Source: a virus | Length of the DNA: 10,494 nt | Strand: one strand, 5' to 3' | UHGV virus genome: UHGV-1956501 | Shown here: piece after piece, positions 4,323 through 8,696 of the stretch | Layout: each line of letters opens with the position of its first letter | Numbering within the stretch: the stretch's first letter is position 1 | Notes under the pieces: model-generated | Database searches by the model: none | The model's input: the letters and a program-made list of their open reading frames with translations, nothing else | What the model was told of the DNA's origin: nothing | Program-made: the position numbers and the translations under genes

Positions 4323-4578
4323 TCTTGCTAAACCTGTAGAAGCACACCAGTTTGACGGAAGCTCTTCATCAGTATCTGATCTGCAACGGTGGATTGATAC
4401 AGGTGTGTTTACATCGTCACCTGTTCGGACCAGAGATCTTCGTCGCATGTGTGAGCTTGTAGAGCCGTTTGGTAACCTAGTCTTGTACCAGGGAGATTGG
4501 TTAGTTGACTTTATGGGAGACTGGTTGGTAATGAGTAAAGAAGAGATGTTTAAAATTTTTAAGGAAGAGGCCGAGTAA
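4309..4578 (+). CDS. Hypothetical protein (89 aa)
   Basis: Strong Shine-Dalgarno AAGGAGG (4296-4302) 6 nt before ATG 4309; stop overlaps the downstream start (TAATG). No recognisable motifs. Confidence 0.55.
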   Translation: MPLFNLAKPVEAHQFDGSSSSVSDLQRWIDTGVFTSSPVRTRDLRRMCELVEPFGNLVLYQGDWLVDFMGDWLVMSKEEMFKIFKEEAE

Positions 4579-5861
4579 TGCATCAAATCAAAACAACACT
4601 GTACGCACTGAATAAAGATGGCAGCTACCAACAGTGGAAAGTATTCACGGATGGTGATAAGGTTATCGTAGAGTTTGGCAAGCTTGATGGTAAACTGCAA
4701 TACAAAGAGACGATCTGCACACCTAAGAACGTTGGTCGCGCCAATGAAACTACAGCTGAGCAACAGGCCGAGCTGGAAGCGATCAGTAAGTGGGAAAAAC
4801 AGGTCCGACTTGGGTACGTGGAGAGTATGGAAGATTGTGAGCAAGGTGTTGATCTTCTACCCATGTTGGTGCATGACTACCTGAAGCGTGGCAAGGCACT
4901 TAAATTACCTTGCTGGATCTTGCGTAAGTTAGATGGCCTTCGTCTACTTGTTGTTTTCCAGAATGGTGAGCCTAAATTTATTTCCCGTGGTAATAAGTCC
5001 TACCCTATTCAAGGAAAGCTTCTGGAGCAACTTCGCTCTTTCCACCTAACCACCGGGATTAAACAGCTCGACGGAGAGCTCTATATTCATGGTCTTCCTC
5101 TGCAGAAAATAGTGTCTCTTGCTAAACGGTGGCGCACACAGGAAGAAATTCAGGCCGAGATCGATAAAGACTACAAGGCAGATAAAAAACGCCGTCAGGC
5201 TGCGATTAAGGCAGGTTTAGCAACATACAAAAACTTCAACAAGATGGACATTCCTGTTGATGTTGAGCCTGTTCGTGATGATTTGCGTTACGGAGGGTAC
5301 TGCAGCTACGATCTGGAGTATCACATTTTTGATATTCCTAGCGACAAGGTGTGGTGGGATCCAGAAACAGAGTCTGGACGCTGCAAGGATCTTATGGATG
5401 CAGAGGATACCGTTACCACTCTGATGCTTGACCATATCAAGGTTGTTGACGCAGAGCTTGCGTACACAGTTGATCATTGCGAAGAATCTGTTGGTATATT
5501 CATGTCCGAAGGATATGAAGGTACTATCATGCGTAATTTCTGCGGTAAATACGAGTACGGTCAGCGAACATCTGAAGCATTGAAATGGAAAAAGTTCAAC
5601 GACGCAGAGGTGAAAGTTATTGACGTTGAGAAAGATAAGAATGACGAAGGTGTTCTTATCTGTGTTGACAAGGAAGGTGTTGTTGTTAAAATGAAGATGA
5701 AAGGTACGCACGAGGAGCGTAGCTATGACAGGATGCAGGAAATGATCGGAAAGTTCGTCACCTTCAAATATCAAGCAAGGACAGAAGACAACAACTACCA
5801 ATTCCCTGTCGGTATCTGCGTCCGAAATGTTAACCCAGATACTTGGGAGGTTCTGGAATGA
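4578..5861 (+). CDS. ATP-dependent DNA ligase with about 115-aa N-terminal extension
   Basis: Covalent nucleotidyltransferase motifs in order: motif I ILRKLDGLRLLVV (K-x-D-G-x-R) with downstream ISRGNK, motif III LDGELYIHG, motif IV EGTIMRN, motif V LKWKKF, C-terminal OB-like region. ATG overlaps upstream stop (TAATG). Confidence 0.8.
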   Translation: MHQIKTTLYALNKDGSYQQWKVFTDGDKVIVEFGKLDGKLQYKETICTPKNVGRANETTAEQQAELEAISKWEKQVRLGYVESMEDCEQGVDLLPMLVHDYLKRGKALKLPCWILRKLDGLRLLVVFQNGEPKFISRGNKSYPIQGKLLEQLRSFHLTTGIKQLDGELYIHGLPLQKIVSLAKRWRTQEEIQAEIDKDYKADKKRRQAAIKAGLATYKNFNKMDIPVDVEPVRDDLRYGGYCSYDLEYHIFDIPSDKVWWDPETESGRCKDLMDAEDTVTTLMLDHIKVVDAELAYTVDHCEESVGIFMSEGYEGTIMRNFCGKYEYGQRTSEALKWKKFNDAEVKVIDVEKDKNDEGVLICVDKEGVVVKMKMKGTHEERSYDRMQEMIGKFVTFKYQARTEDNNYQFPVGICVRNVNPDTWEVLE

Positions 5862-5987
5862 TGTAGGAAGGTTTAGTAGGTAACGGTAGCCAATTGAATG
5901 ATGGTTTTTCAAAATTGTCACCTATATAACCACACTATGCAGTGTTGTTGATCTGGTTAATTATGAGTAAACTGGAGAGTATGAAAA

Positions 5988-6485
5988 ATGAAACTTGATA
6001 AAAATGTTCAACGAAAAGCTTTCTTGGATCTTATTGGCTGGGCAGAGGGAACAACAACCCCCCCTGCCACCAAATGTGGAGGATACGATGTTGTAGCATA
6101 CGGGATGGACGGAAAACCTGAAATCTTTACAGATTTTTCTACGCACCCTTTTGCAAACGGTCGCCCTGGTAAAGTGTTTAACTCAAAAGGGCAAAGAACT
6201 ACAGCCTGCGGTAAATATCAATTTCTTGTCAAATACTGGGAACACTACAAAAAACAGCTTAAGTTGCCGGATTTTGGACCAGACAGTCAGGATAAGTGGG
6301 CGATCCAGTTGATCAGGGAACGTAAAGCACTTGAAGATATAGATAACGGTCATATTAAATCTGCTATACGTAAGACCTCAAATATTTGGGCTTCGTTCCC
6401 CTACAACCAGTACGACCAAAATCCAAAAACCATTGACAAGTTGCTTAAGAAATTTGTAGAGTTTGGAGGTGTTGTTCTGGATTAA
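5988..6485 (+). CDS. Endolysin, lambda R-type lytic transglycosylase
   Basis: Near-collinear matches to lambda R as recalled: QRKAFLD, GWAEGT, GYDV, FTDFS-HP, GKYQF, YWEHYKKQLKLPDFGPDSQD, IRERKAL, SNIWASFP, FGG. GGAGA Shine-Dalgarno 8 nt before ATG. Confidence 0.9.
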   Translation: MKLDKNVQRKAFLDLIGWAEGTTTPPATKCGGYDVVAYGMDGKPEIFTDFSTHPFANGRPGKVFNSKGQRTTACGKYQFLVKYWEHYKKQLKLPDFGPDSQDKWAIQLIRERKALEDIDNGHIKSAIRKTSNIWASFPYNQYDQNPKTIDKLLKKFVEFGGVVLD

Positions 6486-6492
6486 TGATTAA

Positions 6493-6515
6493 AAGGTAGG
6501 CCACTCGCCTACCTT
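6493..6515. other. Stem-loop (9-bp stem AAGGTAGGC / GCCTACCTT, loop CACTC) after the endolysin stop
   Basis: Read directly. On the plus strand it is not followed by a U-tract; the A-run before it would give a U-tract on the minus strand. Possible weak or bidirectional terminator or RNA-processing site. Confidence 0.25.
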
Positions 6516-6539
6516 GCTACACCAGAGGTGTGTTGAGAT

Positions 6540-7301
6540 ATGACGATACATTTCTTTTTCAATGATCACTACCCTTATTGGTACAAGGATGGTGATCTAA
6601 TCTTTTGGAAACCTGGCTGCAGTAGGAATGGAAATAGGGCTGGACACTACAACAAAAAGACTGGATATTTCCAAGTGTACAATAAGCTGACAAATGTTAA
6701 ACGTGGCAGACATAGGGAAATTTTTGACATGTTTTACGGATGTGTCACAGATACTTGGCATATTGATCATATTATCTCTAAGAAAAATTCTACTAACGGA
6801 GTGCCTGTAGACAAGATAGAAAACCTTCAAATGTTGAAGCCTTGGGATAACTACTGTAAGAGAGCCTTGGAAAATGTGCAAAGCAATAACACCTCTACAG
6901 TGACTGGTGTGGTATGGCTGAAAAGAGAGGGTAAGTGGAGGGCAAGTAGAAGGATAAATAGGGTAAATGTTAGGTTGGGAGATTTTGACACTTTCGAAGA
7001 GGCTAAGTCTAGGGTTGAATGGTCAATAGCCAACCCGGAAGAGGCTTTAAAGATAGTTCCAAACCCGCACAAGAATAATATCCTGCCAGGTATTGATTGG
7101 TCTAAGAAAGATACCTGTTGGAGGGCACGAGATAACAAAGGAAGAAACTTAAGGTGCTTCAACGACAGGAAGTGGCTAAACCCCTGGTGGGAGGCAGTTT
7201 GTGCAAGAAAGTCTTGGGAAGTAAACTGTCTCTACGGAGGAATGTCACTAACTGAGTGGAAGTTATCCAGAGGCTATCCAAGACCTTGTGTTGAGGATTG
7301 A
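6540..7301 (+). CDS. HNH homing endonuclease with AP2-type DNA-binding domain (free-standing)
   Basis: HNH core WHIDHIISKKNSTNGVPVDKIENLQMLKPWDN (H...N...N). Downstream AP2-like segment TGVVWLKREGKWRASRRINRVNVRLGDFDTFEEAKSRV. Inserted between endolysin and the next lysis-region gene, typical of mobile phage homing endonucleases. Confidence 0.85.
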   Translation: MTIHFFFNDHYPYWYKDGDLIFWKPGCSRNGNRAGHYNKKTGYFQVYNKLTNVKRGRHREIFDMFYGCVTDTWHIDHIISKKNSTNGVPVDKIENLQMLKPWDNYCKRALENVQSNNTSTVTGVVWLKREGKWRASRRINRVNVRLGDFDTFEEAKSRVEWSIANPEEALKIVPNPHKNNILPGIDWSKKDTCWRARDNKGRNLRCFNDRKWLNPWWEAVCARKSWEVNCLYGGMSLTEWKLSRGYPRPCVED

Positions 7302-7304
7302 TCA

Positions 7305-7333
7305 TTGACATAACCACACGGACGTGGTATTGT
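7305..7333 (+). promoter_or_regulatory. Sigma70-type promoter candidate (TTGACA-N17-TATTGT with TG extension)
   Basis: -35 TTGACA at 7305-7310, 17-nt spacer, -10 TATTGT at 7328-7333 preceded by TGg; then GAGAGGG Shine-Dalgarno and ATG 7365. Confidence 0.5.
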
Positions 7334-7364
7334 TGCCTCATAGAATGTTCGAGAGGGTTTAACC

Positions 7365-7571
7365 ATGAAAGATTTTCTGTTGGCAATTTTGTTCATGGCA
7401 GCATGTCTGGCCTGTGGTGTCGTGTTTGCAGGTGAAACAGCGTATCTTGTCGATGTATATCGGGACAATGGTAAACGTATTTGCCTTTATGAGACAAGCC
7501 AAGGTGAGCTCTACGAGCTTGTGAAACAAGGCGAGGCAGGTTCCTGCCCTCGCACCCATTTCTTTGAATAA
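7365..7571 (+). CDS. Small secreted or membrane-anchored protein (68 aa) with N-terminal signal/TM segment and two Cys in the mature part
   Basis: N-terminus MKDFLLAILFMAACLACGVVFAG is a hydrophobic signal-like segment (possible cleavage after VFA; non-canonical lipobox). Own promoter and Shine-Dalgarno. Sits in the lysis-type region. Confidence 0.6.
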   Translation: MKDFLLAILFMAACLACGVVFAGETAYLVDVYRDNGKRICLYETSQGELYELVKQGEAGSCPRTHFFE

Positions 7572-7580
7572 GGAGGATAC

Positions 7581-8045
7581 GTGGAAGACGGACGTTTAAT
7601 GAAGTCTGAACGCAGGCTTATTGTGCAACTGATCCCAGAAACAGCTTGGTATAATAACCTCCGAAACGCTGTAAAGAAGAGTGAGTGGGATAAGATCCGC
7701 AAGAAGTGCTATAAAGAAGCCAACTACACCTGTGAGGTGTGCGGCGGTAAAGGCAGCAAACACCCAGTGGAGTGTCATGAACTTTACACTTTCGAAGAGG
7801 GAGTGATCCGGCTTGTCGGACTGATAGCGTTGTGCCCAGATTGTCACACATCTGTGCATCCTGGGTTAGCAAATATCCGTGGAAAGTATGCTCAGGCAGT
7901 TAGTCAGTTGGCTAAGGTGAATAAGATCACCAAGGGTATGGCAGAGGCGTATTACCGAGACTGCTTTGCAGAGTGGCGTGAGCTTAGTAAAGTTCCAGAA
8001 TGGAAGACTGACTTTTCGTGGATAGAGGGTTACCTTGATGGCTAA
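7581..8045 (+). CDS. Zinc-binding His-Me-finger (HNH / EndoVII / NinG-like) protein, putative nuclease
   Basis: AGGAGG Shine-Dalgarno (7571-7576) 4 nt before GTG 7581. Motif CEVCGG-x6-HPVECHE-x-LCPDCH-x-x-x-H resembles the CxxC...H...CxxC-H arrangement of beta-beta-alpha-Me nucleases. Nuclease activity is inferred. Confidence 0.55.
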   Translation: MEDGRLMKSERRLIVQLIPETAWYNNLRNAVKKSEWDKIRKKCYKEANYTCEVCGGKGSKHPVECHELYTFEEGVIRLVGLIALCPDCHTSVHPGLANIRGKYAQAVSQLAKVNKITKGMAEAYYRDCFAEWRELSKVPEWKTDFSWIEGYLDG

Positions 8046-8328
8046 GAAACCTTTAAAAGAGAAATTTGATAAGACAGCTTTTGTATTCGATACACCTCTG
8101 GACGACATCATCAGAGGTATGCAATCCTTGTATCGGAAGGCTGAATCTGAGCAGTTGTCTGAATCAGAACTTTACTGGCTTTGTTGGTGGGAGTTAAACC
8201 TGCCTAAAGCTGAAAGTTCTTGTCTGAGAACTGTTAAAACGTGCGCCCAAGAAAACGCTGCACTTGGAATCTACCACAAAAGGAAAAGATCAACAAAAAT
8301 CTCTCCAAGAAAGACCAAAAAGTCTTGA
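8038..8328 (+). CDS. Hypothetical protein with strongly basic C-terminal tail
   Basis: ATG 8038 overlaps the upstream stop (ATGGCTAA). C-terminus YHKRKRSTKISPRKTKKS is Lys/Arg-rich. No homology recognised; could be spurious. Confidence 0.4.
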   Translation: MAKKPLKEKFDKTAFVFDTPLDDIIRGMQSLYRKAESEQLSESELYWLCWWELNLPKAESSCLRTVKTCAQENAALGIYHKRKRSTKISPRKTKKS

Positions 8329-8387: not shown

Positions 8388-8696
8388 ATGCTTAAAATTT
8401 TTATTGTTGAAGATAAAGATATTGTCCAGTTGTATGCAAACGAGAATCATAAAGGTATGATTCTGAAGAAGGCAAGCAACCTTCATGAAAACACAATTCA
8501 ACCTGGCGATGTAATTAAGATCTGTGGTTATATGATATCAGACTCCTTGATGAAAATAACCCACCACTGGGGGTCTAATCCGTTCCTTTTTGAAAAGTAT
8601 TGGGATGTTGAGTCACTTATTGCAGAGAGTGATGATGCATTCCATTACAGCATCCAACCATCTTGCAGAATAACTAACAGGAGGGTCTTTGAGTAG
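8388..8696 (+). CDS. Hypothetical protein (102 aa), first gene after the strong promoter
   Basis: ATG with good Shine-Dalgarno spacing (8 nt) directly downstream of the consensus promoter. No motifs recognised. Confidence 0.6.
   Translation: MLKIFIVEDKDIVQLYANENHKGMILKKASNLHENTIQPGDVIKICGYMISDSLMKITHHWGSNPFLFEKYWDVESLIAESDDAFHYSIQPSCRITNRRVFE

Follow-up and report, generated by a model that had tools for sequence, protein, structure and literature searches.

We analysed a stretch of 10,494 nucleotides from the virus genome UHGV-1956501, hereafter the window, in which the gene for a lambda-R-type endolysin is followed by a homing endonuclease gene (HEG) of the HNH/AP2 kind and then by ORF90, a small open reading frame (ORF) for a predicted exported protein (Table 1). 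A megablast search with positions 5700-7800 matched 121 phage records, which were Escherichia/Shigella Vequintavirus phages except for 19 'Campylobacter phage' deposits and two unnamed records. On these matches the window is assigned to a Vequintavirus coliphage, that is, to the rV5-like myoviruses with genomes of about 137 kb. Its genes run in the order RNA ligase, Sir2-like protein, ATP-dependent DNA ligase, endolysin, small ORF, HNH and 5'-exonuclease, the same order as annotated in rV5, SophiaRose, JeffSchatz and RudolfGeigy. An earlier note on this DNA had labelled positions 5988-7571 a lysis-type region. That label was wrong, since the gene order is the DNA-metabolism order of the rV5-like relatives, and the locus is a ligase-to-5'-exonuclease block holding a lone endolysin gene. 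The parts that the note had listed were found again: the R-type transglycosylase, the DNA ligase as its upstream neighbour, a hairpin after the endolysin, a free-standing HNH-AP2 endonuclease, a sigma70-like promoter, and a small protein with a predicted signal peptide, two Cys in its mature part and none of the proline-rich features of spanins. We consider it quite likely that the region is an rV5-like ligase-endolysin-ORF90 locus in which a HEG module has overwritten the body of the endolysin gene, ORF90 being resident and exported.

Table 1. Features of the endolysin locus in the window (aa, amino acids)
Feature	Position	Strand	Remarks
ATP-dependent DNA ligase	4578..5861	+	Pfam DNA_ligase_A_M and DNA_ligase_OB_2 above cut-off; phrog_114, E 2e-83
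Lambda-R-type (GH104) endolysin, 165 aa, 'allele B'	5988..6485	+	PDB 1am7, E 9e-35
Mobile cassette, 1264 bp (endolysin body, hairpin, HNH/AP2 gene)	6030..7293	+	replaces 421 bp
Hairpin, 9-bp stem, 5-nt loop	6493..6515	+	between endolysin and HNH gene
Second hairpin, 5 bp (ACACC/GGUGU)	6519-6531	+	partly covers HNH Shine-Dalgarno sequence
HNH_3-type HEG with two AP2-like units ('HEG-1', 253 aa)	6540..7301	+	phrog_99, E 7.6e-20
Sigma-70 promoter P90, extended -10	7305..7333	+	resident; TTGACA, 17-bp spacer, TATTGT, upstream TG
rV5 ORF90 homologue, 68-aa precursor	7365..7571	+	phrog_4641, E 4e-28
ORF90 signal peptide, aa 1-22	7365-7430	+	
ORF90 mature beta-sheet domain, 46 aa	7431-7568	+	invariant C40, C61
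Second HNH endonuclease (rV5 ORF91)	7581..8045	+	phrog_5200, E 5.9e-72

The endolysin matched lambda lysozyme over its full length when the PDB was searched with phmmer (1am7, E 9.2e-35, residues 4-163 against 3-153), and it also matched phrog_90 'endolysin' (E 1.5e-50); a Pfam search gave no match at E<0.01. The catalytic Glu of its 'AEGT' motif (E20, G21, T22) was invariant in comparison with lambda R and two Vequintavirus alleles, and 60 further columns were invariant in the alignment with lambda R. From this homology the gene is assigned as a lambda-R-type lytic transglycosylase endolysin. Its identity to lambda R was 48%, and to the 156-aa endolysin that is usual in Vequintavirus (rV5, JeffSchatz) it was 55%. 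The usual Vequintavirus endolysin was thus no closer to that of the window than were those of unrelated phages, such as gpK of P2-like (Peduovirus) phages (56.6%) or the endolysins of Pseudomonas phages (about 56%). Endolysins at least 95% identical to that of the window occurred in 20 records only, the same 20 that carried the HNH gene, and 612 other records stayed below 60%.

Alignment of the window DNA with JeffSchatz, which lacks the HEG, showed near-identity that stopped at 6029 (codon 14, within AFLD) and returned at 7294 with GGATTGA. Codons 1-14 of the endolysin are therefore resident and codons 15-165 come from the cassette. At the other end, GGATTGA at 7294 derives from the region in which the resident endolysin gene stops and now ends the HNH gene, whose last two codons and stop are resident sequence. 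The left flank including the ligase gene was 96.8% identical in DNA to JeffSchatz, and we take the DNA ligase gene to be resident flank outside the mobile cassette. The earlier note had described the HNH gene as interrupting the region. This held in that the HNH gene is a mobile arrival, but it came with a different endolysin allele, and the two together overwrote the resident endolysin gene between codon 15 and its stop codon.

Comparison of relatives bore out the mobility of the HNH gene that the note had suspected. In tblastn searches the HNH protein was at least 95% identical in 20 of the 121 related records and every other hit was below 60%, the gene being absent or replaced elsewhere; its ORF was intact in all 20 carriers. 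The flanks of the window were 96.5-98.4% identical to those of JeffSchatz and RudolfGeigy, neither of which carries this HEG, whereas its left flank was only 92.7% identical to that of SophiaRose, which does. Since the flanks are nearer to those of phages without the HEG than to those of SophiaRose, carriage is not simply clonal. Copies of the cassette within Vequintavirus were 97.8-98.2% identical to one another.

A search of about 5.8 billion proteins returned HNH relatives at 79, 78 and 70% identity, known from metagenomic contigs only. The genomic contexts examined for the 78% and 70% relatives were of two kinds. In a 128-kb genome of a sister clade (L022), a 184-aa gene is followed by a B-type endolysin (80% identical to that of the window), the HEG and an ORF90 homologue. 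In three contigs (L023-L025), a B-type endolysin (77%) and the HEG are followed by an unrelated 62-aa gene and nrdD, with no ORF90, and the nrdD part shows about 79% DNA identity to Vequintavirus nrdD. The pair of endolysin B and HEG is thus kept at 70-80% amino acid identity in three genomic contexts including the window. Sister-clade genomes without the HEG (L004, L005, L007, L008) carry other endolysin alleles, and the two breaks in the alignment of L022 with L008 coincide with those of the window, one following the AFLD codons and the other falling on the stop codon of the resident gene. The nrdD gene itself is split by another HNH_3 gene in many relatives (L023, 1264-4179; OR062943.1, 17957-20211).

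The same locus was found in several other states. Both rV5 and JeffSchatz have the 156-aa endolysin and no endonuclease gene, and the window and 19 others have the 165-aa allele B with the 253-aa HNH/AP2 gene downstream. RudolfGeigy and at least four others have a 162-aa endolysin followed by a different, 227-aa HNH_3/AP2 gene with the same right boundary, and the last 30 or so codons of this endolysin have been converted to a third allele type. A 159-aa endolysin is found in YP-6 and contig L006, where a HEG about 37% identical to that of the window lies upstream of it, in JEP1, where the YP-6 HEG survives as a remnant of 96 aa with an internal deletion, and in V18, which has kept the allele and lost the HEG. 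Read from these genes, the locus is a hot spot at which every stage of the HEG life cycle can be seen, from intact and alternative genes to a decayed and a lost one. Gotham (L012), YP-6 (L013), JEP1 (L014) and V18 (L015) also differ in length around the endolysin; in V18 the ligase ORF runs into the endolysin start, and in Gotham-type phages (L012, 1639-1857) a further ORF, of 72 aa, separates ORF90 from the second HNH gene. Elsewhere in Vequintavirus-type genomes, the terminase gene holds an intron with a HEG, and at least five putative HEGs were counted per genome.

The HNH gene matched eight further PHROG HNH families besides phrog_99 'HNH endonuclease'. Three other HEGs of the locus, among them two that score above the Pfam cut-off for HNH_3, were aligned with HEG-1, and H77, N95 (of an ENL motif) and N104 were invariant. 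In the AlphaFold model of HEG-1, three strands and a helix at residues 124-164 reached block means of 66-84 in the predicted local distance difference test (pLDDT), as expected of an AP2 unit, and a second, weaker strand-helix unit was seen at residues 186-221. A sequence search of the PDB with HEG-1 gave no meaningful match. The hairpin between the endolysin and HNH genes is real: the 76-nt segment around it folded at -23.8 kcal/mol (z = -2.84), and none of 200 shuffles was as stable. It was rejected as an intrinsic terminator, having no U-tract and drawing no call in a terminator scan. The weak second hairpin recalls the translational occlusion that keeps expression of T4 homing endonucleases low, and by analogy it might act in the same way.

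The endolysin showed no N-terminal hydrophobic segment or export signal when these were looked for, and so it should depend on a holin. There is no ORF with a membrane helix between the ligase and endolysin genes, as the note had indicated in finding no holin adjacent on the 5' side. This holin-less neighbourhood is not peculiar to the window and has been published for rV5-like phages (PMC3606486, PMC6658697, PMC7471380): the rV5 paper found no holin beside Gp89 and proposed the distant gp129, a 78-aa two-helix protein (PMC3606486), and in the genome announcements of LL12 and Gotham a holin could not be identified. The spanins of rV5-like phages adjoin the large terminase gene (PMC7344957). 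DrSchubert, a BASEL phage with the same module as the window, has its lysis-related genes dispersed, with the spanins at 1-683 beside the terminase gene, a 'putative holin' at 86.8 kb and the endolysin at 127.7 kb; the DNA that borders the interval contains no canonical set of holin and spanins. At 104.6 kb DrSchubert has a 78-aa two-helix ORF that fits the description of gp129, and the holin candidates disagree, being gp129 as published for rV5 and bas50_0114 as annotated in BASEL. When the complete DrSchubert genome was scanned crudely for hydropathy, many small membrane ORFs came up, among which no single holin stood out. Beside rIIA, the same genome (MZ501060.1, 58874-59374; L018, 8874-9374) encodes a SleB-like 'cell wall hydrolase' which has an N-terminal hydrophobic segment resembling a signal or a signal-anchor-release (SAR) sequence and matches PHROG endolysin families. 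Given this signal-like segment, rV5-like phages may have a second, self-exporting muralytic enzyme, which, if true, bears on the puzzle of the missing holin.

Downstream of the cassette, the promoter matches the consensus at 10 of 12 positions, is annotated as P90 in the rV5 record and is identical in all three states of the locus. The sister clade has TTGACA-17-TATACT with TG, the same architecture although the spacer sequence has diverged, which argues that P90 is functional. Since P90 is a near-consensus promoter of the host type, ORF90 is probably made early. ORF90, annotated as a 'putative membrane protein' in the rV5 record, was at least 95% identical in 120 records, with homologues at 63-87% identity in metagenomic relatives and at about 35% in other Vequintavirinae (Serratia phage Kashira, Salmonella phage SSBI34). 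We regard it as a resident gene which is kept throughout Vequintavirinae and lies outside the module. When 13 members of the family were compared, the hydrophobic stretch at the N-terminus varied in sequence and the mature domain was conserved, and in 13 of 13 the stretch ended in a small-x-small motif (e.g. VFA, AWS, AHA, AEA) 2-3 residues before the conserved core. The AlphaFold 2 model (mean pLDDT 82) showed an N-terminal helix and then a four-stranded sheet. ORF90 is therefore predicted to be exported by Sec, cleaved by signal peptidase I and released to the periplasm as a 46-aa protein, in which C40 and C61 probably form a disulfide. We rejected ORF90 as an o-spanin lipoprotein with FMAAC or CLAC as lipobox, because C14 and C17 are absent from most homologues and the mature part has a single Pro. 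It was also rejected as a class III holin or signal-anchor protein, because its signal-peptidase motif is conserved and its hydrophobic segment varies. No retained membrane helix was found in ORF90, its sole hydrophobic segment being N-terminal and its conserved part a soluble beta domain. Lacking both a lipobox and such a helix, ORF90 is neither holin nor spanin; it can be set aside as a candidate for either, which narrows the search for the rV5-like holin.

Spackle and RI of T4 are small periplasmic phage proteins, and RI acts in the periplasm. ORF90 resembles them as a small, phage-encoded protein exported to the periplasm and possibly made early, a functional analogy only, since it has no sequence or fold homology to either. 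Among Pfam, NCBIfam and PHROG its only match was an unnamed PHROG, and fold and profile searches gave no functional lead. When 1.8 billion representative proteins were searched exhaustively with a profile, 10 hits were returned, of which about six were small signal-peptide members of the family; three long repeat proteins among the hits were judged spurious, the match being weak and lying over beta-hairpin repeats. The contigs of two distant relatives were too short for their contexts to inform. The earlier note had offered a lysis accessory, a periplasmic inhibitor or a superinfection-exclusion factor, none of which is backed by homology or fold.

Our best guess, and a tentative one, puts ORF90 in an early role directed at the envelope, for instance in superinfection exclusion, and not at the core of lysis. 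ORF90 might then be an early periplasmic exclusion or immunity factor that blocks penetration or DNA entry as Spackle does. A small exported protein with two invariant Cys, expressed from a strong host-type promoter within an early DNA-metabolism block, is consistent with such a role, as is the conservation of the mature domain while the signal peptide varies, and the tail lysozyme and CHAP hydrolase annotated in DrSchubert are possible targets in the virion. All known members of the family come from phage or phage-like sequences, and each is a small secreted beta-sheet protein of about 45 residues with the two invariant Cys. It is a rather doubtful extension that they form a new family of phage periplasmic effectors, ORF90 being either the missing periplasmic part of rV5-like lysis control or a Spackle-like block of the muralytic tail enzymes that superinfecting phages bring. 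As doubtful, and a separate matter, is the idea that the endolysin itself is cargo which HNH endonucleases move between genome positions in Vequintavirinae.

We think it unlikely that ORF90 is a lysis accessory working with the endolysin, for example a periplasmic timer of the antiholin kind or a protein that regulates or inhibits the transglycosylase, and that the HEG has split a functional two-gene unit. The predicted location of ORF90 is the compartment in which RI acts, and adjacency of endolysin and ORF90 is kept in Vequintavirus and in the sister clade with different outer flanks. The rV5-like holin and any lysis regulator are also missing from the literature (PMC6658697, PMC7471380). 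However, the ORF90 homologue of Kashira lies within the ligase-exonuclease block at a distance of about 13 kb from the endolysin, and the annotated neighbours of the SSBI34 homologue do not include an endolysin. Thus adjacency is weak evidence for a role in lysis, and the linkage is weakened again by L023-L025, where the endolysin-HEG module occurs without ORF90. The near-consensus sigma-70 promoter of ORF90 suggests early rather than late expression, and neither PHROG nor the fold and profile searches gave any similarity to a holin, antiholin or lysozyme inhibitor. ORF90 is a conserved exported protein that is worth a knockout.

Several neighbouring features were recorded besides. The second HNH gene (ORF91), which lies 3' of ORF90 and probably shares the P90 operon and transcript, has a 99% identical copy in JeffSchatz and is kept in most of the Vequintavirus records that were inspected. 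Phage V18 has a truncated copy, and in the sister clade, which lacks the gene, an unrelated 145-aa gene occupies the same place; ORF91 looks like one more free-standing HEG, now close to fixation. Two small ORFs at 8035-8328 and 8388-8696 are annotated as 'transposase-like' in rV5 and SophiaRose, and one of them matches phrog_14449 'transposase'. As neither contains a Pfam transposase domain, the label looks unfounded. Just 5' of the endolysin (5916-5955) and of ORF90 (7305-7345), the sequence ATAACCACAC is followed after about 8 nt by GT.TTGTTG. It has two exact copies in the window and five with at most one mismatch, against 0.8 expected, and the repeats could serve both genes as a regulatory element or be left over from a duplication of the promoter region when the endolysin entered the locus. 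The 19 records labelled as Campylobacter jejuni phages (MG0656xx; A147, A135, C11, C12 and others) are 95-98% identical to E. coli Vequintavirus genomes across the locus, and their label is probably a wrong host name or the result of mixed preparations.

The presence and absence of the HEG among relatives, its linkage to one endolysin allele and the boundaries of the module are observed in these genomes, and together they form the pattern expected of free-standing HEGs that act with co-conversion. Free-standing homing endonucleases of T4 (SegF, SegG, MobE) are known for such 'intronless homing' with co-conversion of flanks. By this analogy, in a mixed infection the endonuclease would cut or nick a HEG-less genome in or beside the endolysin gene, and the break would be repaired by recombination with a HEG-carrying genome. 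The donor endolysin being too divergent for recombination within it, the exchange would resolve in the nearest shared sequence, to the left in the first 14 endolysin codons and to the right in the stop codon of the resident gene together with P90, so that the HEG and the linked allele would be copied in together. The divergent allele would presumably make the carrier immune to its own enzyme. Cleavage, its target site and this immunity of allele B are what we infer from the pattern of the locus.

Certain points weigh against homing with a co-converted endolysin. The HNH protein stays below the Pfam cut-offs (AP2 21.7/33.3, HNH 16.3/21.4 and HNH_3 10.5/24.8 bits), and its HNH core has an insertion of about 6-11 residues compared with related HEGs. 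The AlphaFold model, built from a 5-sequence alignment, was poor overall (pLDDT 44), which made it unfit for a fold search and left the catalytic fold without structural confirmation. The activity of the enzyme and its cut site are predictions from sequence, and the donor lineage was not found among the proteins searched, the nearest copies being 70-80% identical. Ordinary homologous recombination between mosaic phages could also give the same pattern of alleles. Plain mosaicism, that is, a single ordinary recombination followed by vertical inheritance with the HNH gene as an inactive or domesticated passenger, would suit the general mosaicism of phage genomes, the atypical HNH core and the near-identity of the Vequintavirus cassettes, which fits one acquisition. 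It nevertheless appears quite unlikely to us, because the same module with the same boundaries occurs in the sister clade at only 70-74% DNA identity and the module again in a third context, carriage does not agree with the identities of the flanks, three HEGs that differ from one another but share an architecture, including a decayed copy, cluster at this single gene, and the HNH ORF has stayed intact in every carrier.

Homing of the HEG with its linked endolysin thus remains our preferred explanation; on this reading an essential lysis gene can travel as a complete functional allele with a selfish endonuclease. The module explains a 45% difference in endolysin between therapeutic coliphages that are otherwise about 97% identical, and it is relevant for those who use Vequintavirus endolysins (e.g. 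LysECP26) or type phages by the endolysin. In the public BASEL collection, phages in which the HEG is intact, alternative, decayed or lost offer a convenient natural system in which HNH homing can be studied during mixed infection.

Compared with known systems, the window is closest to the rV5 ORF88-ORF91 locus (DQ832317; Kropinski et al. 2013, PMC3606486), which comprises the ligase, the Gp89 lysin, P90, ORF90 and the ORF91 HNH gene in the same order, with the same promoter and an identical ORF90 sequence. It differs in that rV5 has the 156-aa endolysin with no HEG between lysin and P90, whereas the window has the 55%-identical 165-aa allele and the HNH gene. The endolysin shares with lambda R (GH104; PDB 1am7, 3d3d) full-length homology, the catalytic Glu and the lack of an export signal; unlike lambda R it lies outside any holin-endolysin-spanin cassette, is only 48% identical and has two short insertions (alignment columns 41-45 and 68-72) seen neither in lambda R nor in other Vequintavirus alleles. 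HEG-1 is predicted to have the N-terminal region, HNH core and two AP2-like units, in this order, of the HNH_3 and AP2 phage endonucleases (PHROG 99; PF13392 and PF00847) and is about 30-36% identical to HEGs of T1-like, Kagunavirus and Klebsiella phages, but the insertion in its core keeps its Pfam scores below threshold and its closest relatives (70-79%) come from metagenomic contigs only. The HEG-endolysin module is an ordinary mobile element of a kind known from phages, of which it is a further member. Like SegF, SegG and MobE of the T-even phages, the HEG of the window is intergenic and sporadic among close relatives, the sequence of its neighbour gene has been replaced and the carrier allele differs from the target. 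The T-even enzymes are of the GIY-YIG type, whereas that of the window is a putative enzyme of the HNH_3/AP2 type; in the window module the replaced tract extends over nearly a whole gene at 55% amino acid identity, and endonuclease and endolysin have stayed linked across three contexts.

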